Source: Armatimonadota bacterium (GTDB lineage: Bacteria; Armatimonadota; Hebobacteria; Hebobacterales; Hebobacteraceae). From it: DNA of 56,180 nt. Of this stretch, positions 3,646 to 46,281 are shown piece after piece (the first letter of the stretch is position 1; the number at the start of each line of letters is the position of its first letter). The position numbers were made by a program, and so were the translations under genes. The stretch lies in contig WFSF01000202.1 of NCBI GenBank assembly GCA_015486155.1, positions 1 through 56,180 of the forward strand, given 5' to 3'. The notes under the pieces are model-generated. The model worked only from the letters and a program-made list of their open reading frames with translations, did no database searches and was not told the DNA's origin.

Positions 3646-3704
3646 GTTTTTACACCTTATGTGTCATATGTGCTATCGCGGCGCCCGGGGCCCCGGCCAC
3701 GGTC

Positions 3705-4937: not shown

Positions 4938-5036
4938 GTGTGCTGCGTCCTTTCTGCTCTGTCGCCCGCATACCCTGCGAATGCAGAGGTTCCGCCTCCA
5001 CCGCCACCGAATCCCCTTCCCGGAGGACGGCGGCCG

Positions 5037-24456: not shown

Positions 24457-25203
24457 TCACCACTCCCCGCACAGCTCCTTGTACCCGCAGATTCCGCACA
24501 TGAAGTTCTCGTTGGGATAGAAGATTCCCGTGTTGATGGCGCGTTCAACGTGCTCGGCCAGCCTGAGAAAGCGGTCAATGTCGGCCTGCGCGCGGGTTGT
24601 CGGTAACTGCTGGACCTTTGGCTGTTTCGTGCGCACGAGCACGTCAAGCCTCAGGCCCTTTTCCGGCTTTCCGCGGAGAGCCCGGTAGGCGAGCGCGTAT
24701 GCGGTGAGCTGGATATCTGTCTCTGCGGCATGCGGCGGGAAGCTGCGCCGCGTGGTCTTGTGGTCAATGATGGTCCCCTGCTCATCTATCAGGTCAATAT
24801 ATCCCTTCAGAGGGAGCTCCGTCACGCCGGTTTCGAGCAGAAACTCCCTCTCGACTTCGACCGGCTGGACTCTTGGGGCGACCTCCCGGTGGTAAGCGCC
24901 CAGCAACCTTACCCCGTCATCCTTGAGATGCCCCGGCTTCTCGTCCTCCTGAAAACGCGCGTACCGGCTCTCTTCTTCCCAGCGCTCGCTGAAAATATCG
25001 TGCAGCTGCTCCAGCGGCAGATCCTGGCGGGTCTGAATCTTCTGGCGATAGTTCTGCTCCAAGGTCTCGTGCACGGTCCTGCCGAGGGTGACATCGCCGC
25101 TCGGAGGAATCTTCAGGCCGCATACATAGCGGAAGTAGTACTGGAGAGGACAGCGCAGATACATGCGCAGCTGGGTGACCGACAGGTAGGGTTCATCTCC
25201 CAT
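24457..25203 (-). CDS. PD-(D/E)XK nuclease, Cas4/RecB-like with 4-Cys cluster
   Basis: 248 aa. YLRCPLQYYF near the N-terminus plus C-terminal CGICGYKELC gives the C...CxxCx5C pattern. The nuclease core is GYIDLIDEQGTIIDHKTT (D...D-x-K). Confidence 0.8.
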   Translation of the reverse strand: MGDEPYLSVTQLRMYLRCPLQYYFRYVCGLKIPPSGDVTLGRTVHETLEQNYRQKIQTRQDLPLEQLHDIFSERWEEESRYARFQEDEKPGHLKDDGVRLLGAYHREVAPRVQPVEVEREFLLETGVTELPLKGYIDLIDEQGTIIDHKTTRRSFPPHAAETDIQLTAYALAYRALRGKPEKGLRLDVLVRTKQPKVQQLPTTRAQADIDRFLRLAEHVERAINTGIFYPNENFMCGICGYKELCGEW

Positions 25204-30005: not shown

Positions 30006-31049
30006 CTACCGCAGCACCGAGAATTCTCTCACCTTCCCTTGTATCGCTGCCCTCTTCGCCTGGATCAGGTCGAGGTCCACCAGCTCGTTGCAGTAGTCAG
30101 AATAGGTGCGCACCGCGATGGGCTTCAGGCCCCTGTCCTTGCACGTCCTCAGATACAATCTCCACAGGTCCCCGGACAGAATGGCGGGACGCTGCGCAAT
30201 CAGTTCGTAAAGCAGTCGGTGGTGGTCTGTGAGTTTGCGGAGCCGCTGGGCCTTCTTTAGGTCCTTGGCGGAATTCCATCCGGCGTGAATATGGCTGGGC
30301 CGAATGCGCCCGGCCCTTTCCCGGTCGGCCAGAAGGGTAGCGTTGCGCAAGGTCTGGATTGCGACCCGCGCATCCCCGTTTGCGAGTTCTGCAATCGAGC
30401 TGAGCACCTCCTGCGAGCAGGCCCCGGCCGCGAGCGCGTATTCGGAGCGCCGCTCCAGGATGGCCAGCAGGTCATCGGCCGAATAGTGAGGGAAGTAGAC
30501 GGCCGTGGGATTCAGGCGGGACTTCACCCGGTCCTCCAGCTCGAAGTACACGTGCGGGGAATTGCAGACACACACCAGGCCCAGGTTCCCAAGCTGGCAG
30601 AGATTGTACAGGATGGAATACCGCTCCTTGGGCGCGGGCTGGTCTATCTCGTCGAGCACCAGGATCACGGGTTGTGTTCCGAGGTAGCGTTGCAGCCGTT
30701 CCAGTTTGAACGAGACGGTTAACCGCTCGGCCCCTAGTACTCGGAGCTCCCGCACCAGCCGGTCCAGCACCGAGAAATAAGTCGGGTACTCCCAGCAGTT
30801 GACATACATCCCCCGCACTCCGGCCTCTTCTGCCAGTCTCCGCAACACCCACTTCGTGGTTGCGGTCTTTCCCGTGCCCGGATTCCCGTATACCCAACAA
30901 TGGACAGGCTTCGTGCGCTGAGCCGCGGGGCGCAGCGCGCCGAGCAGTTCCTTTATCTGTTCCGTTCGCCTGAGGATGTCCGGGGGGACGTGCGTCTCGG
31001 TGAGGACCTCGGGGTCCGTGAGCAGGAGGGACTCGTCCTCGTATGTCAT
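30006..31049 (-). CDS. Orc1/Cdc6-like AAA+ ATPase with C-terminal winged helix
   Basis: 347 aa. Walker A VYGNPGTGKTAT, Walker B ILVLDEIDQ, sensor-1-like LVCVCNS, arginine region GDARVAIQTLR, and a C-terminal wH (LTDHHRLLYELI...). The overall order is typical of Orc1/Cdc6. Confidence 0.8.
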   Translation of the reverse strand: MTYEDESLLLTDPEVLTETHVPPDILRRTEQIKELLGALRPAAQRTKPVHCWVYGNPGTGKTATTKWVLRRLAEEAGVRGMYVNCWEYPTYFSVLDRLVRELRVLGAERLTVSFKLERLQRYLGTQPVILVLDEIDQPAPKERYSILYNLCQLGNLGLVCVCNSPHVYFELEDRVKSRLNPTAVYFPHYSADDLLAILERRSEYALAAGACSQEVLSSIAELANGDARVAIQTLRNATLLADRERAGRIRPSHIHAGWNSAKDLKKAQRLRKLTDHHRLLYELIAQRPAILSGDLWRLYLRTCKDRGLKPIAVRTYSDYCNELVDLDLIQAKRAAIQGKVREFSVLR

Positions 31050-31352: not shown

Positions 31353-32171
31353 ATGACGCTAACAGCAAGGGAATATAAACCAGGGCTGGGCAGGCGGGAG
31401 GCCTCGCTGATTGCCGGGCTGGCCGAGGAGGGAAAGACTCTCTTCACCATGGCGGATGCGAAGGGGGTGGTCGGGCCCCAGGCCAAGGACGTCATCCGCT
31501 GGCTGGTCCGCAAGAAATGGGTGCTGCCCCTGAAGCGGGGACTCTATGCTATCGTCCCGCTTGATGTCGGGGTGAAAGGCGCAGACGCCTTCGTCGTCCA
31601 CAATTTCGTGGTAGCCTCTCTGCTGGTCGAGCCCTATTACATTGGCTACTGGTCGGCCCTCAACTACCACGGGCTTACGGAGCAGATTCCCAGAACGACC
31701 TTCATCGCCACCACCAGGGCCAGACACGCGGTCGAGGTTCTGGATGCGGAGTACTACTTCGTGAAGCTGACGCCCGCCAAGTTCTTCGGCTGGGAGGAGA
31801 CAGAGATAGAAGGCCGCACGGTGCGGATCTCAAGTCCCGAGAAAACCGTGGCTGACTGCCTGGACCACCCGGAGCACTGCGGAGGCATTGAGCAGGTCGC
31901 CCGGGCCCTGTACTTCTCTCACGAGGAGCTCGATCTCCGGCGTGTGGTGGAGTGCGCGCGCCGGATGCGCAACAGGACCATCCTGAAACGGCTCGGCTAC
32001 ATTCTCGAGGTTACCGGACTGCTCCCGCAGTATGGCGGGTTGTTCAAGGACTTCAAACCTTCCGCGGGCTTCCCAAGGCTGGACCCTTTGTCGCCGCGGC
32101 GCGGCAAACATAACAGCCGCTGGGGACTGCTCGTAAACTGCCCGCTTGATCCCGAGGGGTGGCGATATTGA
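31353..32171 (+). CDS. abiEi: AbiEi-family type IV antitoxin / transcriptional regulator
   Basis: 272 aa. N-terminal wHTH (FTMADAKGV...IRWLVRKKWVLPLKRGLYAIVP) and a C-terminal AbiEi_4-like region (YIGYWSALNYHGLTEQIP). It overlaps the downstream toxin gene. Confidence 0.85.
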   Translation: MTLTAREYKPGLGRREASLIAGLAEEGKTLFTMADAKGVVGPQAKDVIRWLVRKKWVLPLKRGLYAIVPLDVGVKGADAFVVHNFVVASLLVEPYYIGYWSALNYHGLTEQIPRTTFIATTRARHAVEVLDAEYYFVKLTPAKFFGWEETEIEGRTVRISSPEKTVADCLDHPEHCGGIEQVARALYFSHEELDLRRVVECARRMRNRTILKRLGYILEVTGLLPQYGGLFKDFKPSAGFPRLDPLSPRRGKHNSRWGLLVNCPLDPEGWRY

Positions 32172-32938
32172 TAGACCGAAGGGAGCTGCTGGCCCGTGCG
32201 CGAGAACGCCGTCTGCCGCTGGCGATGGTGGAAAAGGACTACGTGCTGGGCTGGGTGTTGTATGGCTTGAGCCAGATTAAAGACCTGGTGTTCAAAGGAG
32301 GGACTGCCCTCTCCAAGGTCTACTTCCCCGAGACTTGGCGGCTTTCCGAAGACCTGGACTTCGTGTCCGACTCCGGCGAATGGTCTGGTCTCCTGGAGCA
32401 AATGACAAGTGCGCTTTCCGAGGTGGCGTCGCAGAGCGGCATCGGGCTTGCAGTGAAAAGCAGGCACATGAACCCCGGCTACCTGCAGTTGAAGATTCAG
32501 TACGACGCGGTGCTGGGCAAGAACTGGGTGAAGGTGGACGTAACCCCTGAGCGGCCGGTGGCGAAGGTCCTGTCCAAGCCGCTCTCACAGCAGTATTCCG
32601 ACTATCCCAGGTTTCGCGTGCGGGTGGAGTGCATCGAGGAGATCCTCGCGCAGAAGCTGCGGGCCCTGGTCGAACGCCGGAAGTCACGGGACTATTATGA
32701 CGTATGGCGCATGCTGCAGCTGGAATTCGACCAGGCCAAGACCAAAACCCTCTTCCGCCGGAAGTGCGCGGTCAAGGGCATCCAGTTTCAGGGTCTCGGC
32801 GACTTCTTCCCGGATGACCTGCCGGACATTCTCCGCGGATACTGGGAACGGGAGCTGGGCCGGCTGGTCCATCCCGTGCCGGAGATGGAAACGGTCCTCG
32901 CGGAATTGCAGGAGAGGACGCGGTCATTCATTGCCTAG
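32159..32938 (+). CDS. abiEii: AbiEii/AbiGii-family nucleotidyltransferase toxin
   Basis: 259 aa. LAMVEKDYVLGWVL, FKGGTALSKVY and SEDLDF (NTase motifs) are typical of DUF1814/AbiEii. Confidence 0.85.
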   Translation: MAILIDRRELLARARERRLPLAMVEKDYVLGWVLYGLSQIKDLVFKGGTALSKVYFPETWRLSEDLDFVSDSGEWSGLLEQMTSALSEVASQSGIGLAVKSRHMNPGYLQLKIQYDAVLGKNWVKVDVTPERPVAKVLSKPLSQQYSDYPRFRVRVECIEEILAQKLRALVERRKSRDYYDVWRMLQLEFDQAKTKTLFRRKCAVKGIQFQGLGDFFPDDLPDILRGYWERELGRLVHPVPEMETVLAELQERTRSFIA

Positions 32939-33260: not shown

Positions 33261-33389
33261 CGGGCTTGCTAAAGGGGCCCAAACGTGTAGTCGCGCGTCC
33301 TCATGCGAGAGACATCATTCCCAGAAGTTTTCTAACTCGCCCTGCCATACCTCCTCACGTTTGCCTCAGATGCCCACCTACAGAGTGGC

Positions 33390-33434
33390 CAGTGTCCTAT
33401 CTCGGAAGTTCTGAACCTATCTCGAAGTCTGGCC
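33390..33434. repeat. Imperfect direct repeat, copy A
   Basis: cagtgtcctatctcggaagttctgaacctatctcgaagtctggcc. In a hand alignment to 34587..34629, 37 of 45 columns are identical, including a perfect 16-mer aagttctgaacctatc. Confidence 0.6.
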
Positions 33435-34330: not shown

Positions 34331-34586
34331 GAGGGGCATCTGTCGCTGGCGGTGTGACTGGTGCTGAGGGAACACGGCAATTGTGCGCTAGATTCAGCAC
34401 AGGAGAAGGTGGTCAGCAGTATTAGTCGGGCATGTTTTGGCGCGTTTGTGTCGCCATTTTCTAATTACTCTTTCTCATTAGTGTCGTCGTCTGGATAAGT
34501 CTCGATAGGAGCTCGCGACGCGGCTGAGTCCGCGTTGCATCCGCAGCGGGACATTCAGCGAAGTGTGCGCAGTGTGCAGTGTCCTG

Positions 34587-34629
34587 TTTCGAAAGTTCTG
34601 AACCTATCAAAGACTGACCGGTCTCCAGC
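34587..34629. repeat. Imperfect direct repeat, copy B
   Basis: cagtgtcctgtttcgaaagttctgaacctatcaaagactgacc. It lies in a roughly 400-bp ORF-free stretch, as copy A does. Confidence 0.6.
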
Positions 34630-34738: not shown

Positions 34739-35473
34739 CTACTTCCTGTCCCGCAAAGCTGGCAGCGCCGCTAAGAAGCTGTCGGCGTAGTCATTGGCCT
34801 TCTTACGTACATAGCCAGGCAGAATGCAATAGGCAAAAACGATGGCTGCCGCGGCAAACAACGTATACGCTACAGGGCCAACTAGTGAGCAGCTATGGCA
34901 CATGTATCCTATCCACAGGACGATCATGCTGCCAACGGCTAGCGGCACCCAGATCGTGCGAAGCCCTGCCAAGTTCCTCGCAAAGCCGTAATCTGCATTG
35001 TGCAGGTCCACCCGTCGACCTTCATGAGTTTGCCAGAGACGCGACTGCAGTGTTGTAACCGCGTCGTTGATCACTCTGTCAAGCTCCGCAACATCTCCTT
35101 GCTCTGCGGCGGCTTCTATGTCAAGCCCGGTCAGATCCTTGATGGTCTGCCATAAGAGTCTCTTCTGCTGTGTCGAGAGTTCGTCATTCTTAGGGTGTAG
35201 CCGACGATGGGTAGGTGCATCATGTGGCCAAGTAGGCCAGAGCTGCGCTTGGAAACGGTTTCCCAGGGCAGAGGCAACGTGGGACAGGCCTACCCCCAGC
35301 GCAGTCCAAATGCCGAGTCCCGACAGCATGCCTGTCAGCCAATCACCGTCTTTCCATTGACATATGGCCAGCAAAGGCAGGAGTGGTGCCAGAGCCAGAA
35401 CTGCTGGGGCAAGCCGTGCCTTTCTCTCATAGGAATCACTCAGATTCGCGTACCTTAGAAACCTGGTCGACAT
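34739..35473 (-). CDS. Membrane protein, unknown function (2 N-terminal plus 2 C-terminal TM helices around a soluble helical insert)
   Basis: 244 aa. Hydrophobic segments are LAPAVLALAPLLPLLAI, GIWTALGVGLSHVA, IWVPLAVGSMIVLWIGY and VAYTLFAAAAIVFAYCIL. It starts 29 nt downstream of the MBL gene. Confidence 0.6.
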   Translation of the reverse strand: MSTRFLRYANLSDSYERKARLAPAVLALAPLLPLLAICQWKDGDWLTGMLSGLGIWTALGVGLSHVASALGNRFQAQLWPTWPHDAPTHRRLHPKNDELSTQQKRLLWQTIKDLTGLDIEAAAEQGDVAELDRVINDAVTTLQSRLWQTHEGRRVDLHNADYGFARNLAGLRTIWVPLAVGSMIVLWIGYMCHSCSLVGPVAYTLFAAAAIVFAYCILPGYVRKKANDYADSFLAALPALRDRK

Positions 35474-35501
35474 AGAGGTCCTTCCGCGGGGGGTCCCTCA
35501 T

Positions 35502-36509
35502 CTATTTATTGGCTGGACACTTGCCAGCATCAATAGCGCTCCAACCAGGACGAGATGGTTTGCCGCCGCCTCGGTGACAGATTACGTTTCCCCAGTCGCG
35601 CTGACAACCGGGATAGCAGTCGTCGGTTTTTTCCGAGCATAGGATCTTAGCACCTACTGAACGGAGGGCTTCAAGTACCTCCCGCTCGGGATGCCCATGA
35701 TGATTTGGCCCTACCGGGACACAGGCTACCTCCGGACGAATGCGTTCAACCAACTCGTCATCTAGACCTGTCTTACTACCGTGGTGCGGCACTTTCAAGT
35801 AGGAATATGGTCCGTTAGAGACGACATCCTTCAGGACCGTTGCTCCGGCGTCACCTGTAAAGAGCGCTTCTGCTTTCCCCTTGTACCAGAGTTCTAACAC
35901 GATGCTCGAGTTATTGCTCGCGGTGGTCGGGGGTGGCGCTTTGGCTCCCTCAGGGACCGTAGCAGACGTAGCCTTTGCAAGTTCAAGGGACTCCTCGAGA
36001 ATCTGGTCGGCCCATGCGGTCTCTAACATCTCGTCGGTCGGACTTACCACTGCGAGACTGATATCCTCCCCGAACTGCCAAGACTCACCCCTAAGAGCTC
36101 CGGTCACTTTAATCCCCTTCTCCTGTGCGAGCTTCACCAGACTATCGGCGGTCTGCACACCTTCGACCATCTCCTTCACAGACACGACGTCAAAAACGGC
36201 ACTCAAATGATCGCGAGCTGCCAACCACGCTTTCATCGTGCCTGGAACATTGAGCACAAGTTCGCGCACGCTAACTGCGTTCAGGACCTCGGACAGGCCA
36301 CCAATATGGTCATCGTCCAGATGGGTTCCGATGACGAGATCAAGTCCAGTAGAGGCGTACTGCTTGACGTGTTGGACCATGTTGGTTGAGTTCCCCTGGC
36401 GCCCTCCGTCAATCAGCACGTAATGCTCGACACCATCATCATCATCGAGAGTCAGCATGAAGCAATCTCCGTAGTGCACGTTCACCATGTCAATATAGTA
36501 GCCCATCAC
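35502..36509 (-). CDS. Metallo-beta-lactamase-fold hydrolase (ComEC/Rec2-related type)
   Basis: 335 aa. Motifs GDCFMLT, VIGTHLDDDHIGG (an HxHxDH-type motif variant), VPHHGSKTG, and a Cys-rich C-terminal tail. AGGAGGAAG SD. Confidence 0.8.
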   Translation of the reverse strand: MMGYYIDMVNVHYGDCFMLTLDDDDGVEHYVLIDGGRQGNSTNMVQHVKQYASTGLDLVIGTHLDDDHIGGLSEVLNAVSVRELVLNVPGTMKAWLAARDHLSAVFDVVSVKEMVEGVQTADSLVKLAQEKGIKVTGALRGESWQFGEDISLAVVSPTDEMLETAWADQILEESLELAKATSATVPEGAKAPPPTTASNNSSIVLELWYKGKAEALFTGDAGATVLKDVVSNGPYSYLKVPHHGSKTGLDDELVERIRPEVACVPVGPNHHGHPEREVLEALRSVGAKILCSEKTDDCYPGCQRDWGNVICHRGGGKPSRPGWSAIDAGKCPANK

Positions 36510-36682: not shown

Positions 36683-38683
36683 TCACCTTGACCGCTGATC
36701 TTCCTCAGCCCGGAGAATCGTCTTCAGCAGCACCTTCTCGGTCTGTAGAGTACTCCTGCTCCTATCCATGACCACCATTTCATTAAACCCCGCCTCCTCG
36801 CACTTTCTGCGATTCGCTTCTGCGTCTGACTTGCCCGTCTCGATCTCCATGGCGATCCGCTCGCCGTCCTTGGAGGCCACCAGGTCAACGGTCCTGCCGC
36901 CGCCGACCGGAACCTCCTCCCCTACTTCGTAGCCCCGGCTCCTGTAATCCTCGGCGATCCTGTGTCTCCAGTACTCGTGTTCCAGGCTGGCATTTTTCGG
37001 GAACGGTTTGACGGGAACACGCCAGGATTGGAGCAAGTCCTTGCCTTCGGGGGTAATCTGCAACAGGCTGACCTTGCCCTCAGGCACGGGCAGGTCTTCC
37101 TGAACGGTGAGGCCGCGCTTCAGGAGCGCTTTCTTGACTTTGGTCCCTGTGTGCGCCGTCCAGCCCAGTCTCTTGTAGCGCTCGGTCACGGTGGACAGAG
37201 GATGCTCTGCAATATCGAGCAGCAGCTGGCGCTCCCGGTCAGGTATTCGGCTGGTTTCCCTCTTCCTTGTGTCTGTCCCGCGAAGGGGCCGAATCGCCTC
37301 ATTCATGGCCGTCCGGAGCTCCAGGGGTCTCGCCACAGGCGAATCGGTCTGGCCTGTCTTGCCGCGGGGCTGGGAAGGTCTTTCGGTGACGGGAAAGAGC
37401 GGAAACCGCACCAGGAAAGGCGTCGGGAAGCGATCCGGAACTTTGACTATGCCCTGTCCCGCGGGCAGCCTGGCGATGTGCTCCCGCCGGTCTCTGGGCA
37501 GGGCGAGCGCCTTGCCGGCAGCCTCCAGGTCATCGGCGTGCTTCAGGTTGAGACAGATGGTCACGCCGGTGTTTCCCAGGGAGGGCGTGGACAACAGGCT
37601 CGGGTTTTGGTCCATCAGAATCAGGGCCTGGCCCAGGTCCCTCATCTGCCGCAGCATGAGGTCATGTGTTGACTGGTCTTGGCCGGGTGTGCGCAGAAAC
37701 AAGTGATGGGCCTCTTCGATTATGAGCGCGTGTTTGAAGGCGCTCGATGCCCTTCCCTCGGCAAGCCGGTAGTAGAACAACCAGAGCAGCAGCGCTTTCG
37801 TGAAGGCGACGCGGTCTGTCTGGCTCCCCAGGCCGTCGAGTTCCAATATGACCGGGCTATGGAGAATATCGGTTATGCCTGCCTCTCCCGGCTGGTTGAA
37901 GATTGTGCCGATGGGCCCAGTAGTCAGTTTGAGCAGGACGTTCTGGGCGGATGCGGTCCAGTCGCGCTCCCGCGACCGGGGCCGGTATTTGTCCAGATAG
38001 GCCTTGATATCGTTGAAGGTTGCCGGTTTCCCCGAGATGATGCCGAAGTGGCCGAGGGCCTTCAGCAGGAAGTATTCGACGCCCCTGGTGCTGAGCAGGT
38101 GAAAGCCCGGCAGGTAGGTGGTGCAGATGGAAGACAAGATGTCTCGCAGATACGCTTCGCGCTGGCTCTGGGTGAGATTGCCCGGCGGGTCGAGGGGATT
38201 GAAGGATAGCGATTCCGGCTCACCCAGGGAGAAGATCAGGATGTCCTTCCCTTCGGGACGGAAACGGAAGTGCCGGTAGTTCCTGCGCCAGTCCAGAACG
38301 ATAAAAGGTTTGCCGGCGCGCAGCAGATTCCAAACCAGCAGGTATCCGATGTTGGATTTGCCCGCGCCTGACCTGCCAAGAATAGCCAGGTGCTGGGCCA
38401 GTTCTCCCTCGCGCAGGCCGAAGGGGCAGGCGCGTTTGCCCGCGTAAGTTACCCATCCGAGCGTGTAATCGCCGGCGGCCTGGTGCCTGGATGGAGGTTC
38501 CAGCAGCAAGTGCTGCCTGGCGTAGTCTTCCCCGAGCAGTTCGGCCGCCATCGCGCGGGCGACGGCCCTGACGTCCTCGTGCCGGGATGGATCGAGCAGT
38601 GCAGTAAGCCACAAAGCGTCGGCCGTCTCACCGATGACAGGACGAAGCTTCGCCAGGATATCATGGAAGTCGCCGCGGACCAT
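36683..38683 (-). CDS. HerA/FtsK-like (DUF87-type) P-loop ATPase fused to wHTH and PD-(D/E)XK-like nuclease domains
   Basis: Start set at MVRGDFHDIL (ATG 38683, 4 nt after the upstream stop). Walker A ILGRSGAGKSN, Walker B ALIIEEAHHLF. C-terminus GYEVGEEVPVGGGRTVDLVASKDGERIAMEIETGKSD (D...E-x-E..K), preceded by a wHTH-like segment. Confidence 0.8.
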   Translation of the reverse strand: MVRGDFHDILAKLRPVIGETADALWLTALLDPSRHEDVRAVARAMAAELLGEDYARQHLLLEPPSRHQAAGDYTLGWVTYAGKRACPFGLREGELAQHLAILGRSGAGKSNIGYLLVWNLLRAGKPFIVLDWRRNYRHFRFRPEGKDILIFSLGEPESLSFNPLDPPGNLTQSQREAYLRDILSSICTTYLPGFHLLSTRGVEYFLLKALGHFGIISGKPATFNDIKAYLDKYRPRSRERDWTASAQNVLLKLTTGPIGTIFNQPGEAGITDILHSPVILELDGLGSQTDRVAFTKALLLWLFYYRLAEGRASSAFKHALIIEEAHHLFLRTPGQDQSTHDLMLRQMRDLGQALILMDQNPSLLSTPSLGNTGVTICLNLKHADDLEAAGKALALPRDRREHIARLPAGQGIVKVPDRFPTPFLVRFPLFPVTERPSQPRGKTGQTDSPVARPLELRTAMNEAIRPLRGTDTRKRETSRIPDRERQLLLDIAEHPLSTVTERYKRLGWTAHTGTKVKKALLKRGLTVQEDLPVPEGKVSLLQITPEGKDLLQSWRVPVKPFPKNASLEHEYWRHRIAEDYRSRGYEVGEEVPVGGGRTVDLVASKDGERIAMEIETGKSDAEANRRKCEEAGFNEMVVMDRSRSTLQTEKVLLKTILRAEEDQRSR

Positions 38684-38687
38684 GTAA

Positions 38688-39323
38688 TCACGATGGAGCC
38701 TCCCGATTCTTGGCCGTGTCCTTGGTCCTGCCCAGGGAATCAATCTCGCGCCTGAGGGCCCGGATTTCTCGGCCCAGCGCCAGCAAATCGCGCCAGCTCA
38801 TGACGGTCTCTTGCCTTCGCTGCCGCTTGAGCTCCAGCAGTTGCCGCTCCAGATGCCTTCGCTTTTCGAAGTCGTTCAGGACCATGTGGCCCTTCAGCAG
38901 GGACAGCGAACGGTCGCACTCCTCGATGTCAGAATCGATATCCTCCAATGCTGCCGCGGTCATTTTCTTTCTCTGGTCACGCGCGGCTTCAAGCTCCCGC
39001 AGTGTAGCATTGAGCAAATCGAGCCGGTCGGAGAAGAGAGAACGCATCAATTGAAGAGGCCGGAACCTGGGTTCTCCATCCCTTTCCGTCGGTCTCCGGT
39101 CCGGCGCTTCGAGGGGCGACCAGTCCTCAAGCGGATGCGACAAATCAGGAATAGCCGACTCCTCTACGGAGTCAGGGGGTAAGGACAAAGATGGATCGGT
39201 AGCCCGGGCTGCGTAGGATTGGCGCTCCAAGTCCCAGCTGAGGGGATAAGGCTGGTAGGTGGGATAGACCTTGTCCAATGGCAAGCGAGAACGGGGCATG
39301 CGCGACCACAGGCACAGGACCAT
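38688..39323 (-). CDS. Coiled-coil protein, unknown function
   Basis: 211 aa (or from ATG 39299). The C-terminal half is heptad-like (LLNATLRELEAARDQRKKM...LERQLLELKRQRRQE...IRALRREIDSL). It is immediately upstream of the ATPase. Confidence 0.6.
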   Translation of the reverse strand: MVLCLWSRMPRSRLPLDKVYPTYQPYPLSWDLERQSYAARATDPSLSLPPDSVEESAIPDLSHPLEDWSPLEAPDRRPTERDGEPRFRPLQLMRSLFSDRLDLLNATLRELEAARDQRKKMTAAALEDIDSDIEECDRSLSLLKGHMVLNDFEKRRHLERQLLELKRQRRQETVMSWRDLLALGREIRALRREIDSLGRTKDTAKNREAPS

Positions 39324-39650
39324 GTGTTGTGCAAGCAGCTATAAATCTATGATGCGGGGACGACACGCCAGTGGCGCATATGACTGAACGGGAGACCAAC
39401 CGCGGAAACGCAGAGCGGTATTGACGATGGCGCATCGCGCTCCTTGTTTGGCTTGCATGAGAGACCAGGGAAAGAAGGCAGCAAACCCAGTGCTTGACGA
39501 GCGGCGCCATGCCGCATACGATACCGGGGAGAGACTCCGCCCAGCCTTGACAACATCAGGATACCGTACGTCACGGGCAGGAGGCAGGATATAATCCAAA
39601 GGTGAGACGACGTGAGCCACAGGCCACCGCTCATCGCTAGCGGGAGTTGA

Positions 39651-42600
39651 ATGGCAATCCTTCGCTCAGATATCGAAAGAGCCTTGGACGATCTCGTATC
39701 CAATCAGGAAGGGATGAGATTCCAGGGCTTGGCAGTAGTGCTGGCCAAGAAAAGATGGCCGGACCTGATCGCGTGCGAACGCCACAGAGATCTGGGTGCC
39801 GATGCCATCGCAGAGGCTCCCTTTGCTGCTGAAGGCGAGGGGAAGGTCTTCGCGTGCTCCATTAGCGCTTCAATTGCGAAAATATGCTCTGATGCAGAGA
39901 AGGCAAAGGCTAACTTCAAGAACATAACGAAGATGATCTTCGCGACTCCACGGGGCATCTCAAAAACAAAGGAGAAGCAGTGGGCGGAAAAGATCAAGAA
40001 GGACTTCGGCATGGATCTGACCATAATGTCGCGCGAAGATATCATCACGTCGCTGATGGACCCGACCAATGCTTCTCTTCTGAAAAGCCACCTCGGCATC
40101 CACGTGGAAATCGAGCCGGCGCTGTCAGAGCTAGTTGAACAGGTGAAAGAGGCGGCAGCAGAGGTAACTACTGCATGGTCTAAGCGCCTCGCGGGCAAGC
40201 CTCTTCTAGAACTGCGCGCACGAAAGATTGATCCCGAGGGACGGGATTCCGCGGACGTTCTTCAATTCAGCGACATTGCCGCTGCGCTGCTTCAGGGAAC
40301 GCGCGTTGTCCTGGAGGGACCCGCCGGCCGCGGCAAGACAACGACTCTCATCCAGCTTGCAGAAGAGCGTGCCAAAGCCGGAGGGATATCATTTCTGATC
40401 GATCTGACCGCTTGGACAAAGTCGGGAAGTGGAATTCTTGAGTTCATAGCGGGTATGCCTCAGTTTCAGGCTCGTTCACTGGACGCAGCGATACTGGCGC
40501 GAGTGTACACCGCCGAGCATTTCTCGTTCCTCCTGAACGGTTGGAACGAGATTGGGGAATCCGAGTTCCGTCACGCTGAAAGTGCTCTCCGGTCGCTGGA
40601 GCGGGATTTCCCGGCCGCGGGGATTATCGTCGCAACACGAACGCATCACATCGTTCCGCAGTTACCCAGAGCCGTCCGGGCGAGACTCCTTACGTTGACA
40701 AGGCGCGAGCGCGCTGCATACCTGAAAGATCGATTGGGTGTGCGCGCGGGCCAGCTTCGCAGTAAGCTCGATGGCGATCCCGTGCTGGACGATCTGACCC
40801 GGACACCGTTCTTCCTTTCGGAAGTCACATCGCTCTTCGAAGCAGACGAGCCCATCCCATCAACGAAGATCGGTGTTCTTACTGTCGTGATACGGTTGGT
40901 GGAACGGTCTGACGAGCACCGAAATCGTTTACAGGAACCCCCGCTTGCTGGCCGGGCGCGGGATTATCTTGGCGAGCTTGCTACCAGAATGACCGCTCAA
41001 GGTACGGTCATCATCTCCGAAGAGAAAGCGCGCCAAGCTGTCAGCGACGTCGGCACTTCTCTGAAGCATTCCGGACAGATAGCCAACGTGCCAGATCCTA
41101 GCGGCGTGCTGGGCGCACTTTGCGCCCAGCATGTTCTGGAGCGGCAGGACTACCCGGAAGTTGTCTTTCGATTCGAACATCAGCAATTTCAGGAATTCTA
41201 TGCAGCCGTTACTATCGGCAAGCATCTCTTCGAAGTCTTGCCAGAAGCGGATGAAGAGAAGAGACGGGAGTTCACGAGACTATACGTCAATGAGCCAGCC
41301 TGGGCTGAGCCTCTGCGATTACTGGCAGACGATGTCCGAGGCCGTTCTGGTGGCACGAACGGAACGCGTGCTATTGAGGCGGGAACACTCCTTGTCAGAA
41401 TGGCACTGAGCGTCGATCCCGTCTTCGCCGCCGAACTAGCGCGCCTCTGCGGCCCGCATGTCTGGAAGCAGGTTCGAACCGCCATAAGCGATCGGCTCCG
41501 CTCATTGTATGCAGCCTCGGACGCTTCTTGGAGGAATTGCGCACTCGCAGGAATGCTAGCAACTGGATCGGACGACTTCAAGGATATCGTTGAGCCGTTA
41601 GTTTCCAGCGATGACCAGCAGGTTTCCCTTGGTACATACCGGACATGGGATGAGTTTCACGTGTCGAGTCTGGGACCGGGCTGGTGCGACACGGTCGGCA
41701 GTTGGGGGGAGACGGCGCGAGTTACCTTCGTCTCCGAGGTCCTTCGTCACCAAAATGCTCCACAGGTAGCCGCTTTCGCACTGACCGATCCGAGTACAAA
41801 GGTGAAGGAAGCCGCCATTCAGAGGCTTTGCTGGATAGGGGCAGAGGAAGACGCCGCCCAGTTCCTGGACTCGCTTGACGAACCCACTTTCGACCTGATT
41901 GTGGAGCACCTAGGCCCGCGGTTCATTCCGAAACCCATTCGGACTCGGGCAATAGCTGTACTACAACAATGCCGAGCGAAAGCAACTGACCCACTCGCGA
42001 GGTTGCGCACTCTGCTGAGGACGTTCGAAATGGGAGTGCCCAAAGACGTTGATCAGATAAAAGAGGACTTGGAGAGCATTACTGAGAGGATCGACGAGCA
42101 CCAAGCGTACTATGTCATCAGGCCCGCATTAGACATTGTGCGAGAAAAGGATCCGCTGTGGGTAAGTGCCTGGGTTGCTGGAAGGATCGCCGATGGATTC
42201 CTACGGCACGAGTCCTGGCACAACATGATCACCGCGGTTCCTGAAGGGCTCGAACAGGAACTGTTGCATAGACTTGAAACGGAGGATCTCAACCACGCTC
42301 ATCTCGACGATATTATCGCCGTGCTGGCTGCAGATGCCGATGTCACCATGGTCGAGCGGGCGTTTGCGAAGCTTTGTGACCTCCGCCGGACTATAACTAA
42401 TGAGCCGGACCAAAGGCACGAGTTCGAATGGGCCATCGAGAGGCAACTCGAAACGCTGTTGAAGGCCTTGCCAGCGAGTATCGCCGTCGCTGGGATGTCG
42501 AGATGCTTCTCGAAGGAGGTAGACATCGTTGAGCTTGACGTCATTACCCGCGTCTTTAGCAGCGTGGCCTGCGCGGATCTCGAACTCAGAGAGCAGCTTG

Positions 42601-44186
42601 ATGTCAACTTACGAGAGCAGTTCCGTGCCTATCTCAAGAATGCTATAGCACTTGTGCTTCAGCAGGACGACTTTTCAGGCCAGCTCAAGGCAAACGTCGG
42701 TTCAGTTCTGGCATCGGTTGGCGCACCGGAGGACATGGCCGAAATGCGTGAGCTGATCCTGGCCGATATTGAAAGAGTCAGGAGAGGACGGGCCGCCCGC
42801 GCCCGAGGTGATCGCGGAAGGTTGGGGAACGGCGCAGTCATGAGCTGGGCGGTCTGGCACATTCGGGCTGCTGTCAAGCTTGACCCGGCGGGCTCAGACG
42901 CGCTCCTGCTGGATCTCTTGACCGAGCCTGAGTATGAGCGCTACGTTGCGGCTGAATTGTCTCGTCTGGTGGCCCCGCCCGCGGCCAAAGATGGATTGCT
43001 GCGGAAGGTAGACTACGGGCGGGTCTGGGAAGCGCGTGCAGGAGTCCAAGAGGAACCTCAGAAGGAACGGCGGAAGCGCTACGCAGCCGCCTTGCGAAGC
43101 CGCATAGAGACGCTTTTGGAAGAACGCTCTAGCACCAAGCAGAAACGTTCCTACGATTCGAGATTGAGAGCACTCGGCGTTGCCCTTGCAGCAATTGACA
43201 GCCACGGGTCAGCCGACTTGGTTTTCGAGGTGATGTCGCTTCCGGATGAATGGGACAACTACACACGCGTCAAGGCATTTGAAGCACTGCTTCTTAGTGG
43301 CGTCGTTTTGCCCACGGACAAGACCCTGACTTTGCTAGACCCCTTACTTGAGCGATGCCGAAAGTATGGCGAGCAGCAAGACCAATGGCTATTGGAACGG
43401 TACTTGTGTCTTCTGCCGTTCGTGGACGATCCTGCTAAAGGCATCGAGAGAATGCGTCAGTTGGTGTCCGAGCTGAGGCTGTCTGGCTATCAGTTGCGAG
43501 AAATGGTAGAAGCGCTCTCGCATTGTCGGTGCGACCAAGCGTTATCCTTCCTAGTCGAACTTGGATCAGACAAGGCGAACATGGAACAGCTCGGAGATAA
43601 ATGGATTGAAGCAGTGGCTGCCGTTGACAGCCCTGAATCTCGGGACCTGCTCCTTAGTTTCGTCGATCCAGAGCTACCAGGATTGCCTGCTGGAGTCGGG
43701 TTGCCGCGGGATGATGTGCTTGCAGTCCGACTGGCCGAGTTGGCTCGGAGAGATCAAGCAGTCAAGCATCGGCTTCTCTGCCTGTGTGGCTCCGAGCTGC
43801 CAGCAGCGAAACGATCTCTGCTTGCAAAGGTCGTGGGGCAGATTGGCGATGTGGAAGCTATTTGTGCCGGTCTCAATCTTATCGATGACACGGCCAGCAT
43901 GCCCGTTCCCCACGGGATATTGAGACAGATCGAAGGTGCGTTTGTTGAAAGGCAACCGTATGGCGGGAGGTATGACATCTATACTCTCGAACCTCGAAGC
44001 TCCAATGCAATCAGGGCCAGGCTTTTTGAGATGGCGACCACGGATGAGCAGCGCAAGAGATCGGCATTGAGGCTCCTAGGACAAATCGAAGAGTGGCGGC
44101 TCGAGTACGGTAGACCAGTTGGAGAACCTCGACACCCCGCATTCGATTCGGGTAAACCCTGGCCCGCAATGCTGCACGCACAGTAG
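39651..44186 (+). CDS. STAND/NACHT-type NTPase with N-terminal restriction-endonuclease-like domain and C-terminal HEAT/ARM-like repeats
   Basis: 1511 aa. N-terminus FQGLAVVLAKKRWPDLIACERHRDLGADAIAE is Mrr-like, but I see no clear QxK. Walker A is VLEGPAGRGKTTTL and Walker B-like is FSFLLNGWNEI. The roughly 900-aa helical repeat tail has HEAT-like periodicity. Confidence 0.85.
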   Translation: MAILRSDIERALDDLVSNQEGMRFQGLAVVLAKKRWPDLIACERHRDLGADAIAEAPFAAEGEGKVFACSISASIAKICSDAEKAKANFKNITKMIFATPRGISKTKEKQWAEKIKKDFGMDLTIMSREDIITSLMDPTNASLLKSHLGIHVEIEPALSELVEQVKEAAAEVTTAWSKRLAGKPLLELRARKIDPEGRDSADVLQFSDIAAALLQGTRVVLEGPAGRGKTTTLIQLAEERAKAGGISFLIDLTAWTKSGSGILEFIAGMPQFQARSLDAAILARVYTAEHFSFLLNGWNEIGESEFRHAESALRSLERDFPAAGIIVATRTHHIVPQLPRAVRARLLTLTRRERAAYLKDRLGVRAGQLRSKLDGDPVLDDLTRTPFFLSEVTSLFEADEPIPSTKIGVLTVVIRLVERSDEHRNRLQEPPLAGRARDYLGELATRMTAQGTVIISEEKARQAVSDVGTSLKHSGQIANVPDPSGVLGALCAQHVLERQDYPEVVFRFEHQQFQEFYAAVTIGKHLFEVLPEADEEKRREFTRLYVNEPAWAEPLRLLADDVRGRSGGTNGTRAIEAGTLLVRMALSVDPVFAAELARLCGPHVWKQVRTAISDRLRSLYAASDASWRNCALAGMLATGSDDFKDIVEPLVSSDDQQVSLGTYRTWDEFHVSSLGPGWCDTVGSWGETARVTFVSEVLRHQNAPQVAAFALTDPSTKVKEAAIQRLCWIGAEEDAAQFLDSLDEPTFDLIVEHLGPRFIPKPIRTRAIAVLQQCRAKATDPLARLRTLLRTFEMGVPKDVDQIKEDLESITERIDEHQAYYVIRPALDIVREKDPLWVSAWVAGRIADGFLRHESWHNMITAVPEGLEQELLHRLETEDLNHAHLDDIIAVLAADADVTMVERAFAKLCDLRRTITNEPDQRHEFEWAIERQLETLLKALPASIAVAGMSRCFSKEVDIVELDVITRVFSSVACADLELREQLDVNLREQFRAYLKNAIALVLQQDDFSGQLKANVGSVLASVGAPEDMAEMRELILADIERVRRGRAARARGDRGRLGNGAVMSWAVWHIRAAVKLDPAGSDALLLDLLTEPEYERYVAAELSRLVAPPAAKDGLLRKVDYGRVWEARAGVQEEPQKERRKRYAAALRSRIETLLEERSSTKQKRSYDSRLRALGVALAAIDSHGSADLVFEVMSLPDEWDNYTRVKAFEALLLSGVVLPTDKTLTLLDPLLERCRKYGEQQDQWLLERYLCLLPFVDDPAKGIERMRQLVSELRLSGYQLREMVEALSHCRCDQALSFLVELGSDKANMEQLGDKWIEAVAAVDSPESRDLLLSFVDPELPGLPAGVGLPRDDVLAVRLAELARRDQAVKHRLLCLCGSELPAAKRSLLAKVVGQIGDVEAICAGLNLIDDTASMPVPHGILRQIEGAFVERQPYGGRYDIYTLEPRSSNAIRARLFEMATTDEQRKRSALRLLGQIEEWRLEYGRPVGEPRHPAFDSGKPWPAMLHAQ

Positions 44187-44206: not shown

Positions 44207-44706
44207 TTCAGGGCAGTGTTGTCTTGTCAGTCGGGCATGGGTGATCTACTTTGGTGGAGTAAAGAGCATCGAGGTGGCACTGAGGACCCGATGCCACCTC
44301 TCAGACATCTCATGCTTCTCTTATTTCAGACTGTTTGCTATAACGAAGAGCACTGACATCAAGAACAAGCCAACTGGTGTAAGCTGAGGTGATTCCGATA
44401 TGAAGTTGTTCTTCCTCTGCCAGTCCCAAGTAAGCGACACCGGACCAGCGGCGGGTGCAAGCTGATCATACGGTCACCTAGCATAGCGCCTTACAAACTC
44501 TAACCCTATCGAGAAGGCGGGATATAGCGGACATGTTAGGGAGCACGGTGCTGGTTGTGCAGTAACAATTGGTAAGAGTTACAGGCTCAGCGACCAGCAC
44601 TCCCAACCAAGCCGCATCCGCACCAACCGCACCCTCTCCCTGTAGCACCCACATATTGCCGGGGGCGCATTCTTGTCCATTGCGTTCCGCCGCTCATTGC
44701 GCTCAG

Positions 44707-45720
44707 GTGATTCTCACGCGCCCCCAGGCCCGCATCAAGATGGGATACTACCCGACGCCCCTGCCGGTAGTCGACAGAATCGCCTCCTTCCTTGAGTTTC
44801 CCGACGAGAACGTGACCCTGCTCGACCCGTGCTGCGGGGACGGGGCTGCCCTCAGCAGGCTGGCGCAGGGCCGGAACGCGGAGACCTACGGCATAGAGCT
44901 GGACCAGCACAGGGCAGGGCTCGCGAGGGAGGCGCTCGACCACGTGCTCGCGTGCGGATACGAGGATGCAAGGATCACCAACGCCGCGTTTTCCGGGCTC
45001 TTCCTGAACCCGCCTTATGACTGGGCAGAGGCCGGGGAGACAGAGCGCAGCGAGCGGAAGGAAGGACTGTTTCTGCGGGGGACGGCCCGTTATCTCAGGC
45101 CGGGCGGAGTCCTCGTTTACATAGTGCCCCAAACCCAGATGCGGAACGGCGTCGCGAGATTTCTGAGCTACCGCTTTCAGAACTTCAGCGCATTCAGGTT
45201 CCCAGGGGAGCACTACGACGAGTACCGGCAGATTGTGCTGTTCGGCGTTAAGAAGCGCAGGGGCGAACTGGCCGGGGATGACTTCGAACGCCTGCAGGCG
45301 ATCCCGCGGGAAACCCTGTCCGAGCTGCCCTGCCTGGACAGTCCGCGCTATTCCCTCCCGCCTGGGGGTGAGGTCAGGCTGTTCCGGTCCACCCTGATTG
45401 ACGAGGAAGAGCTGGAGCAGGAGCTGAGGGCCTCGCCTCTGTGGGAGCGGTTGAGATACGACAACAACAGCACCGGTAAGCTGGGCCGGCCCCCTCTGCC
45501 GTTGCACGCAGGGCACCTGGGTCTGCTGCTCGCGAGCGGCCAGCTGGACGGGGTTGTAGGCGACGGGGACGACCGCCATGTGGTCCGCGGCAAAGTGGAA
45601 AAGGTCGTCCACAGGTATCAGGAATATGAGGGGGAGAGGCGGGTGGAAATAGAGGTCGAGCGCTACCAGGTCTCCATCAAGCTGCTGAGACAAGACGGGC
45701 GGATAGTGACGCTGATGTGA
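44707..45720 (+). CDS. N6-adenine DNA methyltransferase (DUF6094-like class I MTase)
   Basis: KMGYYPTPLPVVDRI N-terminal signature, LDPCCGDGAAL (motif I), LFLNPPYD (motif IV). Start is either GTG 44707 or ATG 44740. The track ORF start at 44569 adds low-complexity sequence. Confidence 0.8.
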   Translation: MILTRPQARIKMGYYPTPLPVVDRIASFLEFPDENVTLLDPCCGDGAALSRLAQGRNAETYGIELDQHRAGLAREALDHVLACGYEDARITNAAFSGLFLNPPYDWAEAGETERSERKEGLFLRGTARYLRPGGVLVYIVPQTQMRNGVARFLSYRFQNFSAFRFPGEHYDEYRQIVLFGVKKRRGELAGDDFERLQAIPRETLSELPCLDSPRYSLPPGGEVRLFRSTLIDEEELEQELRASPLWERLRYDNNSTGKLGRPPLPLHAGHLGLLLASGQLDGVVGDGDDRHVVRGKVEKVVHRYQEYEGERRVEIEVERYQVSIKLLRQDGRIVTLM

Positions 45721-45724
45721 TGGC

Positions 45725-46273
45725 ATGCTGGAGAGAGTGCGGTACCGGGACCTGGCGCGGGGCATAGACGTGCATGCGTTCACGGACGGGTACGCCTACG
45801 ATGACTACGGCCGGGTTCATCTGCTCTCTGTTGCGGGCAGGGACAGCAATGTGAAGGCCGTCACGACCGCGCTGGTGAGCGGCTTCGAGGTCGAGGTGAT
45901 CTCTGGCGAATGGCTGGCCCTGCGCAAGGATTACGCCGAGCAGTACCGCGTCCTCAGCGCCAGACTGCCTTCGGGGCTGGTGCATCAGCTCGTGCTCTCG
46001 CATGGTTTTTTCGAGCGCGACGGCTTGCCGCGCAGGCTGGTGTATGCAGAGGACGAGGACGGCATAGCGCGGCTGGTCTACGAGACGGTGAGGGGCAGCT
46101 ACGCGGTCCCTCTCATCCCCGAATGGTCGGACTGGCTCTGCGAGAGAATGAGGAGAGAGGACATGCTGCGGCAGCTCTCCGGCACCCGCACGGTGGTGGA
46201 GATCAGCGCCGACGAGGAGCGGCTGGATGAGCTAATTTCGGCAGGGGTCATGAACGGAGAGATAAGGTTCTAA
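45725..46273 (+). CDS. Hypothetical protein between the methyltransferase and helicase
   Basis: 182-aa ORF starting 5 nt after the MTase stop. Codon usage matches its neighbours. No motifs recognised. Confidence 0.55.
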   Translation: MLERVRYRDLARGIDVHAFTDGYAYDDYGRVHLLSVAGRDSNVKAVTTALVSGFEVEVISGEWLALRKDYAEQYRVLSARLPSGLVHQLVLSHGFFERDGLPRRLVYAEDEDGIARLVYETVRGSYAVPLIPEWSDWLCERMRREDMLRQLSGTRTVVEISADEERLDELISAGVMNGEIRF

Positions 46274-46281
46274 GGGATGGC

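Follow-up and report, generated by a model that had tools for sequence, protein, structure and literature searches.

Rings of the HerA type that work with nucleases recur in DNA repair, phage defence and DNA transfer alike, and the family described here forms a large branch of this design. The closest published description of its domain set comes from a study by comparative genomics only, which delineated mobile neighbourhoods with Orc/CDC6, HerA/FtsK, winged helix-turn-helix (wHTH) and both active and inactive restriction endonuclease (REase) domains; its authors, who see traits of both mobile elements and defence in these neighbourhoods, read them as an anti-invader 'HerA/FtsK capture', with Orc/CDC6 serving to position the machinery along the DNA (PMC10853773, Nucleic Acids Res 2024). 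As regards DNA transfer, TdtA of Thermus thermophilus ICETh1 is a HerA-like DNA-donation ATPase on an integrase-bearing element without a secretion system (PMC5365140), and HerA-like ATPases, Orc/Cdc6 proteins and integrases have long been listed as the families most often met in archaeal integrated 'dark matter' (PMC4158269). In the present study, we analysed a stretch of 56,180 nucleotides (nt) from an Armatimonadota bacterium (contig WFSF01000202.1 of assembly GCA_015486155.1), hereafter called the window, which carries a gene pair encoding a small helical partner protein and a HerA-clade ATPase with its own wHTH and predicted nuclease. We read this pair, tentatively and with rather more doubt than confidence, as an ATP-driven, restriction-like DNA-processing module of integrative elements that would act against invading DNA (phages, rival elements). 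A first-pass annotation of the same DNA had not recognised the arrangement, a claim that no longer holds in full, for the combination of Orc/CDC6, HerA/FtsK, wHTH and REase had already been described in silico in the first of these studies.

The partner-ATPase pair and its domain architecture

Both open reading frames (ORFs) are on the minus strand, arranged head to tail. The partner ORF occupies 38688-39323 and spans 211 amino acids (aa), and the ATPase-wHTH-nuclease gene occupies 36683-38683 and encodes 666 aa from its ATG, which is internal to an ORF listed as extending over 36683-38743. The first-pass annotation had placed a 211-aa coiled-coil gene 4 nt before the ATPase, and ORF and spacing are both exact; the protein itself, however, is probably 203 aa long, with a likely ATG at 39299 (39299-38688), since its homologues begin at the position matching Met9 in the alignments, and its coiled-coil character is confined to the C-terminal half (approximately residues 90-205). 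Exactly 4 nt separate the partner stop from the ATPase start (...TCG TGA ttac ATG...), and a GGGAGG box stands 14 nt 5' of the ATPase ATG; translational coupling of the two genes is likely. Directly 5' of the partner gene, a non-coding leader of ~80 nt (39300-39385, minus strand) with TTTATT and GGTGA-like boxes is kept across 8 aligned loci whose coding DNA is only ~65% identical; judged by this conservation, it is probably a promoter and ribosome-binding site or a protein-binding site, and a candidate site for the wHTH.

All four motifs named by the first-pass annotation are present at defined residues, two of them in the motor, i.e., Walker A (GRSGAGKSN, residues 103-111, nt 38351-38377) and Walker B (IIEEAHH, residues 321-327, nt 37703-37723), and two in the nuclease, i.e., TVDLVA (residues 598-603) and MEIETGK (residues 612-618). 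Among 78 homologues, G103, G106, G108, K109, E324, R348 and Q359 are invariant, and the arginine finger and Q sensor are thus present. The full-length protein was modelled as a single chain with AlphaFold2 on these 78 homologues (mean predicted local distance difference test score, pLDDT, 87.3). From N to C terminus, the model comprises helices over residues 1-50, one beta-hairpin (73-90) and a P-loop core (~95-430; 37394-38401, minus strand), in which a helical-bundle insert at residues 172-263 (helices 172-190, 196-216, 223-232 and 237-263) is placed between core strands. Then follow a disordered tether (436-477; 37253-37378, minus strand; pLDDT <50), variable in length and sequence among homologues, a winged helix (482-553) and an alpha-beta-beta-beta-alpha-beta unit (567-640).

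For placement of the motor, the profile of the 78 homologues was searched against PDB sequences. It matched HerA (E-value 2.5e-16), SIR2-associated HerA (1.9e-15), DptH (4.8e-9) and YjgR (1.5e-8) ahead of IcmO (0.0035), VirB4 (0.041) and a TraG-like coupling protein (0.15), and because these values favour HerA proteins over VirB4 and coupling proteins, the motor belongs, as far as its sequence tells, to the HerA clade. The sole Pfam match of the ATPase is DUF87/HerA-central (residues 87-170, 8e-10, above the cutoff). PADLOC gave weak, partial matches to the ATPase only (mad8, 1.5e-11; HerA, 1.4e-9, the HerA models covering only residues ~290-413), and the top NCBIfam match was the VirB4-like DNA-import ATPase CedD (8.8e-16, far below the cutoff), accompanied by weak VirB4/TraC matches; for some distant homologues, Pfam gave TrwB_AAD_bind or TraG P-loop matches. 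In Foldseek searches against the PDB, Sulfolobus HerA ranked top (E 8e-15), followed by HerA-NurA, SIR2-HerA, DUF4297-HerA and TdpAB, and the best per-target structural fit was the VirB4 C-terminal domain (4ag5; TM-score 0.72, root-mean-square deviation, rmsd, 4.2). The six-stranded HAS barrel is the defining part of canonical HerA and the docking face for NurA, SIR2 and DUF4297. It was not found in the ATPase model, where residues 1-50 are helical and a single hairpin covers 73-90 (pLDDT 73-97), and in the alignment ~95 residues stand ahead of the P-loop strand, as against ~135 in Sulfolobus HerA. Since the barrel is absent from the model, the ATPase is not a canonical HerA, and the earlier assignment as a HerA/FtsK-like ATPase stands for the clade but not for the canonical form. 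The position of the barrel is taken by a three-helix bundle (residues 1-50; 38534-38683, minus strand; DSSP of the model), which we infer to be the docking site for the partner. Neither the partner nor the ATPase has transmembrane segments.

The C-terminal winged helix and nuclease core claimed by the first-pass annotation are supported by the full-length model and by a separate model of residues 478-666 (pLDDT 90.1), whose Foldseek matches fall into two groups, MarR-family winged helices and PD-(D/E)xK nucleases. Accordingly we delimit a MarR-like wHTH at residues 482-553 (37025-37240, minus strand) and a predicted PD-(D/E)xK core at residues 567-640 (36764-36985, minus strand) with conserved E568/H569, D600, E613, E615, N624 and K627. 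The nuclease matches include Bax1 (E 8e-4), AF1548 (1.3e-3) and Hjc (1.8e-3), with probabilities of 0.98-1.0 for these three, as well as NucS/EndoMS, the R2 retrotransposon endonuclease and Cdn1; in Pfam, REase_MTES_1575 (E 0.01) and AHJR-like (E 0.095) remained below threshold. In the modelled alpha-beta-beta-beta-alpha-beta topology, D600 starts strand 2 and E613-x-E615 lies on strand 3. H569, D600, E615 and N624 are invariant in the 78 homologues, in agreement with a nuclease fused in cis, with conservation of at least 90% at E613, T616, G617, S619 and K627. Glu occupies the position of the canonical Lys, and K618 is not invariant; the catalytic lysine is probably supplied by K627 on the next helix, and the model suggests that the nuclease is likely active.

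The C-terminal half of the partner has 0 Pro/Gly, 36-46% charged residues and a 3.5-residue hydrophobic periodicity, while its N-terminal half is Pro/Gly-rich and bears the motif YPTYQPYPLSWD (nt 39231-39266). Six partners from different loci can be aligned end to end; all have a YPxYxPYPxSWD motif, then a variable linker rich in Pro/Gly, and finally ~115 helical residues at the C terminus, among them a conserved SWRDL (nt 38784-38798 in the window). A partner profile search returned 95 clusters, all of ~200 aa, all hypothetical and 0 fused to other domains, and no family match was obtained in Pfam, PADLOC, NCBIfam or PHROG. DUF8104 (PF26406) was considered and discarded, the precomputed weak matches not being reproduced by hmmscan at E up to 10 and representing coiled-coil noise only. 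Taken together, the partner appears from its sequence to represent a new family of small, non-enzymatic helical proteins.

Conservation of the pair and its integrative-element setting

A partner-family ORF lies upstream of the ATPase, on the same strand, in 73 of the 81 ATPase copies with enough upstream DNA to judge, mostly overlapping it or no more than 10 nt away. This pairing is far beyond chance, and the coiled-coil protein was rightly taken for a partner; moreover, pairwise identities among the ATPases vary in step with those among the partners (Mantel rho 0.52, p 0.001). The first-pass annotation had itself considered that the C-terminal domain might lack catalytic residues and that the pair might not be conserved; D600 and E615 proved invariant, and the pair recurs as just described. 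The ATPase family includes ~60 cluster representatives that are full-length and 50-70% identical, together with a tier at 26-36%, and an exhaustive profile search at E<=1e-30 retrieved 3,210 such representatives, all of the best 150 being full-length. Screening a single genome for each species yielded more than 436 relatives from very many phyla, some genomes having 2-3 copies, and the family occurs in more than 400 species-level genomes of both prokaryotic domains. Among the named sources are Planctomycetota, Aenigmarchaeota, Korarchaeota, Gammaproteobacteria and Desulfosarcina, and complete genomes with the family include OY776568.1, OY969696.1 and CP159846.1 (Desulfosarcina variabilis). Most members are from bacteria, in Planctomycetota and numerous other phyla, while archaeal ones are scattered, and modules 60-70% identical at the amino-acid level occur in bacterial and archaeal genomes. 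In plasmid and phage databases, only distant ATPase-domain matches were found, at 21-28% identity and within unrelated larger proteins. Below, homologous loci from other genomes and metagenomes that were compared with the window are numbered with the prefix L. In two of them, L004 (7237-7983) and L085, a Cas4-like PDDEXK_1 gene sits between partner and ATPase; this three-gene variant represents a distant subfamily from Desulfosarcina variabilis and a Thermodesulfobacteriota metagenome-assembled genome (MAG).

Neighbouring genes were clustered over 87 loci, among which 44 are well flanked (at least 7 kb on both sides). Recurrent neighbours are genes for Orc1/Cdc6-like proteins, tyrosine integrases, ArdC, Replic_Relax, MoxR/CobS-type AAA proteins with VWA/CobT, Cro-type HTH proteins, a DUF6094 methylase trio and the Cas4-like nuclease, and DUF2958 and RadC genes also occur near the pair. 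The Cdc6-like gene is the most frequent, lying within 10 kb in 23 of the 44 well-flanked loci, so that about half of the pairs are without it; one integrase family is present in 15 of the 44. Conversely, a Cdc6-seeded search of metagenome contigs found the ATPase in 9 of 16 well-flanked loci. The Cdc6-like gene adjoins the pair in ~19 loci: partner, ATPase and Cdc6 are co-directional, with gaps of 11-200 nt, in at least 7 Cdc6-seeded and 3 ATPase-seeded loci, and the Cdc6-like gene lies divergently upstream in 5-6 others. In 3 Cdc6-seeded loci the integrase comes next, within 6-343 nt, and the compact partner-ATPase-Cdc6-integrase cassettes have intergenic gaps of 6-55 nt. ATPase similarity tracks that of Cdc6 (rho 0.29) and of the integrase (rho 0.27). 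Known defence genes are also abundant in the neighbourhoods (AbiE, OLD, NACHT, prokaryotic Argonaute (pAgo), MBL, SIR2_2, RES and AAA_15), while neither capsid genes (in any neighbourhood) nor a membrane component conserved with the pair (in the neighbour clustering) were found. Likewise, 15 Pfam-annotated neighbourhoods contained no type IV secretion genes (VirB6, VirB8, VirB9, VirB10, pilin or canonical relaxase).

L153, L005 and L009 share with the window a backbone of 65-73% DNA identity, comprising the pair, integrase, Cdc6, Cas4-like nuclease and methylase-SNF2 genes, with different genes in the gaps; L153, for instance, carries SIR2_2 where the window has AbiE and MBL. This backbone synteny, the differing gap genes and near-identical copies in one MAG are signatures of a mosaic integrative element with cargo slots. 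The pair is one of its modules, often in an operon with a Cdc6-like gene, rather than a free-standing defence pair in an anonymous island. It seems to shuffle independently of the other modules, for both Cdc6 and the methylase trio may be present or missing: L110 has the DUF499-pAgo-Cas4-integrase-Cdc6 block in common with the window but no pair within its 10-kb flanks, L150-L152 have the pair beside glycolysis genes with an integrase remnant only, and L154 has a PriCT_1 protein in place of Cdc6.

The copies just mentioned come from one MAG (CAXXSM01; L046, L047 and L052), where three segments, 88-91% identical over >10 kb, contain the pair, ArdC, a DUF2924-like gene and CobT-VWA and AAA_5 genes; three such similar copies point to a recently active multi-copy element. 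Circular 12-kb plasmid forms were also considered, but the three ~11.9-kb contigs concerned are ordinary chromosomal fragments from one sample. A block of a FeeM-like acyltransferase, a B12-binding radical SAM enzyme, a ~180-aa protein and a short integrase recurs within 10 kb of the pair, and several loci have a Macro-domain gene directly 3' of the ATPase gene, with an overlap of 20 nt in L154 (L002, L003, L008, L154 and L155; L150:9822-10292 and L154:11937-12497). On a Phycisphaerales MAG contig, 27 tRNA genes are crowded within 3.7 kb, 2-6 kb downstream of the pair (L080:14089-17821).

In the window, the element forms an island of ~40 kb with lower GC content between ordinary transporter and hydrolase genes. 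An Orc1/Cdc6-like AAA+ ATPase of 347 aa (30006-31049, minus strand) is encoded 5.6 kb downstream of the pair on the same strand, with cargo between, and is followed by a tyrosine integrase (26438-27637, minus strand; syntenic with L153 and L009) and a PDDEXK_1/Cas4-like nuclease (24457-25203, minus strand) of the same family as the one inserted in L004 and L085. On the plus strand, 44569-48366 holds the trio of a DUF6094 methyltransferase, a 182-aa protein and a 694-aa SNF2-like helicase, which also stands beside the pair in L002, L005, L008, L153, L154 and probably L155 (66-70% DNA identity); the trio may serve in anti-restriction or epigenetic marking, or belong to the same system as the pair. 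No convincing attachment-site or origin-like repeats and no tRNA genes were found in the window; ~8 of 60 related loci have a tRNA gene nearby.

Most of the remaining genes are cargo-like. Just downstream of the ATPase, 34739-36509 holds an MBL-fold gene (35502-36509) and then a gene for a 244-aa predicted membrane protein; the MBL-fold protein matches LmuA (2e-31), PDC-M48B and Avs1a-like models in PADLOC. A Lamassu-type or three-gene unit including this gene was rejected, as it is not beside the pair at any other locus and a promoter-like site (36653-36624) and a terminator-like hairpin (36615-36600) intervene between it and the ATPase; being not conserved next to the pair elsewhere, it is probably a separate cargo system. 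A 1511-aa NACHT-NCAB2 STAND protein (39651-44186), a caspase-like Peptidase_C14 protein (48463-50103), an AbiEi/AbiEii toxin-antitoxin pair (31353-32938) and an OLD-family ATPase-TOPRIM nuclease (27836-29524) are encoded on either side of the pair. Further away, 21278-24448 encodes in series a 256-aa ORF, a short pAgo (Piwi only, 421 aa) and a Hypoth_Ymh protein (390 aa), an order kept in L110 at 55% and 39% identity. The co-directional genes at 12319-21256, for a SNF2 helicase with a NOV_C/DUF3883 C-terminus (1112 aa), a DUF1156 methyltransferase (956 aa) and a DUF499 protein (920 aa), look like a restriction-modification block, and the DUF499 protein is 81% identical to its counterpart in L110, a metagenome locus. 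The two copies of a direct repeat of 38 nt (33384-33421 and 34571-34608; 87% identical) flank 1.2 kb with small ORFs (145 aa and 66 aa) without family match. In the host-like left flank, two adjoining ORFs at 2416-5007 are tandem duplicates (68-75% DNA identity) of ordinary appearance, 2416-3645 being an MFS transporter by Pfam and 3673-5007 having no Pfam match.

Possible roles of the pair

Acting as a restriction-like module, the ATPase would assemble as a HerA-type hexameric ring around double-stranded DNA, every subunit bearing the winged helix and the PD-(D/E)xK nuclease on a flexible tether of ~40 residues. Its own wHTH would direct the ring to target DNA, helped, where present, by the Orc1/Cdc6-like ATPase encoded just downstream, and translocation would then feed the DNA to the tethered nucleases, leading to cutting. 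The C-terminal coiled coil of the partner may dock on the N-terminal helical bundle, the proposed face being the one where NurA, SIR2 or DUF4297 sit on known HerA rings, and the partner might gate or target the motor via its conserved N-terminal YPxYxPYPxSWD peptide. A classical initiator role for Cdc6 is less favoured than its acting with the ATPase, since the 6-55-nt gaps of the compact cassettes leave no room for an origin. A role in conflict is suggested by the domain logic, the HerA-clade relatives and the defence-rich surroundings, and also by the independent shuffling of the pair, its retention in decayed contexts and the lack of a conserved membrane component; that the same reading was reached in silico by others (PMC10853773) supports it further, and on this analysis a defence role is plausible.

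Several observations weigh against it. No PADLOC model covers the system, the matches being partial and restricted to the ATPase, and the operon holds no consistent device for telling self from non-self, e.g., a dedicated methylase. The pair stays constant while defence genes vary around it (the window versus L153 and L005), and therefore resembles backbone rather than cargo; its linkage to integrase and replication-type genes is strong (Cdc6 in 23 of 44 well-flanked loci, PriCT_1 in L154), and ArdC and Replic_Relax genes recur nearby. Finally, the activity of the nuclease is not assured because its motif is a variant, with E-x-E and a lysine probably drawn from the next helix.

The constancy of the pair, its linkage to integrase and replication genes, ArdC and Replic_Relax, and the precedent of TdtA would rather suggest a role in the life cycle of the element itself. 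The pair could be its DNA-mobilisation motor, the wHTH-nuclease cutting element DNA and the ring pumping it out without type IV secretion, like TdtA or TraB. This alternative, possible although doubtful, draws on the backbone common to L153, L005 and L009 with its differing cargo, the partner-ATPase-Cdc6-integrase cassettes, the ArdC, Replic_Relax, DUF2958 and RadC neighbours, the triplicated segment (88-91% identical over >10 kb), the correlations with Cdc6 (rho 0.29) and integrase (rho 0.27), VirB4 as best single-domain fit (TM-score 0.72) with CedD as best NCBIfam match (8.8e-16, below cutoff), and TdtA as an experimental case of HerA-like DNA donation on a mobile element (PMC5365140). It fits poorly, however, with the lack of a transmembrane segment in either protein and of a membrane protein conserved with the pair, with pairs at L150-L152 that have no visible element genes but an integrase remnant, with the closely related island L110 in which no pair lies within 10 kb, and with a sequence that groups with HerA and not with VirB4 or coupling proteins; a spread over bacteria and archaea is also hard to square with dependence on the envelope machinery of one host. 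Could the pair instead replicate the element, an Orc1/Cdc6-like initiator loading the ring as helicase and the tethered nuclease nicking the origin, independently of the host in bacteria and archaea? The Cdc6-like gene just downstream and co-directional (at least 7 + 3 loci) or divergently upstream (5-6 loci), the ATPase in 9 of 16 Cdc6-seeded loci and the replacement of Cdc6 by PriCT_1 in L154, which suggests exchangeable replication modules, would agree with this, as would the fact that bacteria lack MCM, so that a bacterial Orc1/Cdc6 initiator needs some helicase to load. Yet no FtsK-HerA member is known to act as replicative helicase, Cdc6 is missing from the surrounding 10 kb in about half of the pairs, origin-like repeats were not found near cdc6 in the window, the compact cassettes offer no intergenic space for an origin, and co-variation with Cdc6 is weak (rho 0.29); we regard this role as quite unlikely. 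A combined scheme, in which pair, Orc1/Cdc6-like ATPase and integrase make up a minimal engine independent of the host's domain of life, Cdc6 loading a HerA-type ring with its own site reader and nickase to drive replication or secretion-independent export, would explain the 60-70% identical modules in both bacteria and archaea, but is in our estimation improbable.

The other explanations have far less in their favour. That the ATPase is a VirB4/TraG-type ATPase of a conjugative type IV secretion system, grouped with such proteins in a transfer operon, is an outcome which the first-pass annotation had itself named; the VirB4 C-terminal domain does superimpose (4ag5, TM-score 0.72, rmsd 4.2), and there are weak VirB4/TraC matches in NCBIfam and TrwB_AAD_bind or TraG P-loop Pfam matches in some distant homologues. 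But in the profile search VirB4 reaches only 0.041 and coupling proteins 0.15, as against 1e-15 to 1e-16 for HerA proteins, secretion, pilin or canonical relaxase genes appear in 0 of 15 Pfam-annotated neighbourhoods, and there is no transmembrane anchor, so that this explanation is largely refuted and retains next to no credence. A viral packaging pair, i.e., a coiled-coil small terminase and an ATPase-nuclease motor of a virus or capsid-hijacking satellite, is called to mind by gene order and sizes like those of small and large terminases, by the FtsK-HerA ATPases that package membrane-containing icosahedral viruses, and by weaker Foldseek matches to corticovirus, sphaerolipovirus and A32-like packaging ATPases; with 1 locus in 2.9 million IMG/VR contigs versus more than 436 in genome contigs, 0 close matches in 50,697 phage records, no capsid genes in the neighbourhoods, and PHROGs matches that are absent for the partner and partial for the ATPase, it is very improbable. 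An equivalent of HerA-NurA in cellular DNA-end resection and repair, to which the HerA-NurA complexes among the top structural and sequence matches might point, is unlikely to a similarly high degree, given a patchy, horizontally transferred distribution with several copies per genome, locations on islands and mobile elements, no linkage to NurA, Mre11 or Rad50 and no HAS barrel.

If the pair is indeed a defence system, it would add one that is compact, consists of two genes and is common among uncultured lineages; should it serve the element instead, it would exemplify something rare, be it mobilisation without a secretion system or a bacterial motor linked to Orc1/Cdc6. In both cases, the analysis defines a family of mosaic integrative elements with defence cargo, which in the window consists of pAgo, OLD, AbiE, NACHT and the MBL-fold protein.

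Comparison with known systems

The neighbourhoods of the comparative study (PMC10853773) share with our loci a HerA/FtsK ATPase with a helical-bundle insert and without the FtsK-alpha domain, a wHTH, an active REase fold, Orc/CDC6 and mobility. Of these parts, HerA/FtsK, wHTH and REase are here all in one polypeptide. In the published neighbourhoods, the Orc/CDC6 protein 'invariably' bears an inactive REase, inserted between its AAA+ core and its C-terminal wHTH; the 347-aa Cdc6-like protein here (Pfam Cdc6_lid 196-256, Cdc6_C wHTH 290-344) has no such insert, because a constant 71 residues separate lid R228 from wHTH Y299 in 20 of 20 relatives. The coiled-coil partner is absent from the main-text description, on which our comparison of the families is based, and about half of the pairs here, unlike those neighbourhoods, have no nearby Cdc6.

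Nezha/Gao_Her (SIR2-HerA and DUF4297-HerA) and TdpAB, which are among the closest solved structures and sequences to the ATPase, likewise couple a HerA-clade hexameric motor to a nuclease or NADase effector, DUF4297 and TdpB being nucleases. In these systems, however, the effector is a separate protein seated on the HAS barrel, while the present family has no such barrel and tethers nuclease and wHTH in cis; no SIR2 or DUF4297 effector gene lies next to the ATPase gene, its neighbour being the ~200-aa helical protein without family match. TraB of actinomycete integrative elements and FtsK are FtsK-HerA motors with a C-terminal wHTH that reads a DNA motif, and the TraB elements combine integrase, replication protein and translocase; both motors have N-terminal membrane anchors and no nuclease, and the family here is nearer to HerA than to FtsK by sequence. 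HerA of the HerA-NurA complex is the best motor match by sequence and structure (4d2i, 9x1l/m) and has the helical-bundle insert in common, but the pair lacks the HAS barrel and any NurA or Mre11/Rad50 linkage, and sits on mobile elements.

TdtA, likened here by its description, is also a hexameric HerA-like ATPase without transmembrane segments, with a nuclease and a DNA methylase in its gene set; it differs in its separate NurA-like nuclease and type IIG restriction enzyme neighbour and has no fused wHTH-REase, coiled-coil partner or Cdc6 (PMC5365140). The arCOG00280 'HerA-like helicase', again likened by description, is abundant in integrated elements with integrases and Orc/Cdc6 (PMC4158269) but archaeal, whereas our family is mostly bacterial. 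MADS membership was considered and rejected, for that system requires mad6, mad7 and mad8 all present (bioRxiv 10.1101/2023.03.30.534895), and we found only partial mad8-like (ATPase) and mad2-like (DUF6094 methylase) matches, without mad6 or mad7. Seen against all of these, the system varies the theme of HerA plus nuclease and has been partly anticipated by one in-silico study; what is new, and sets the family apart, is a predicted nuclease and a DNA reader tethered in cis to the motor, a HAS docking barrel that has been replaced, and a new family of small partner proteins attached to it.

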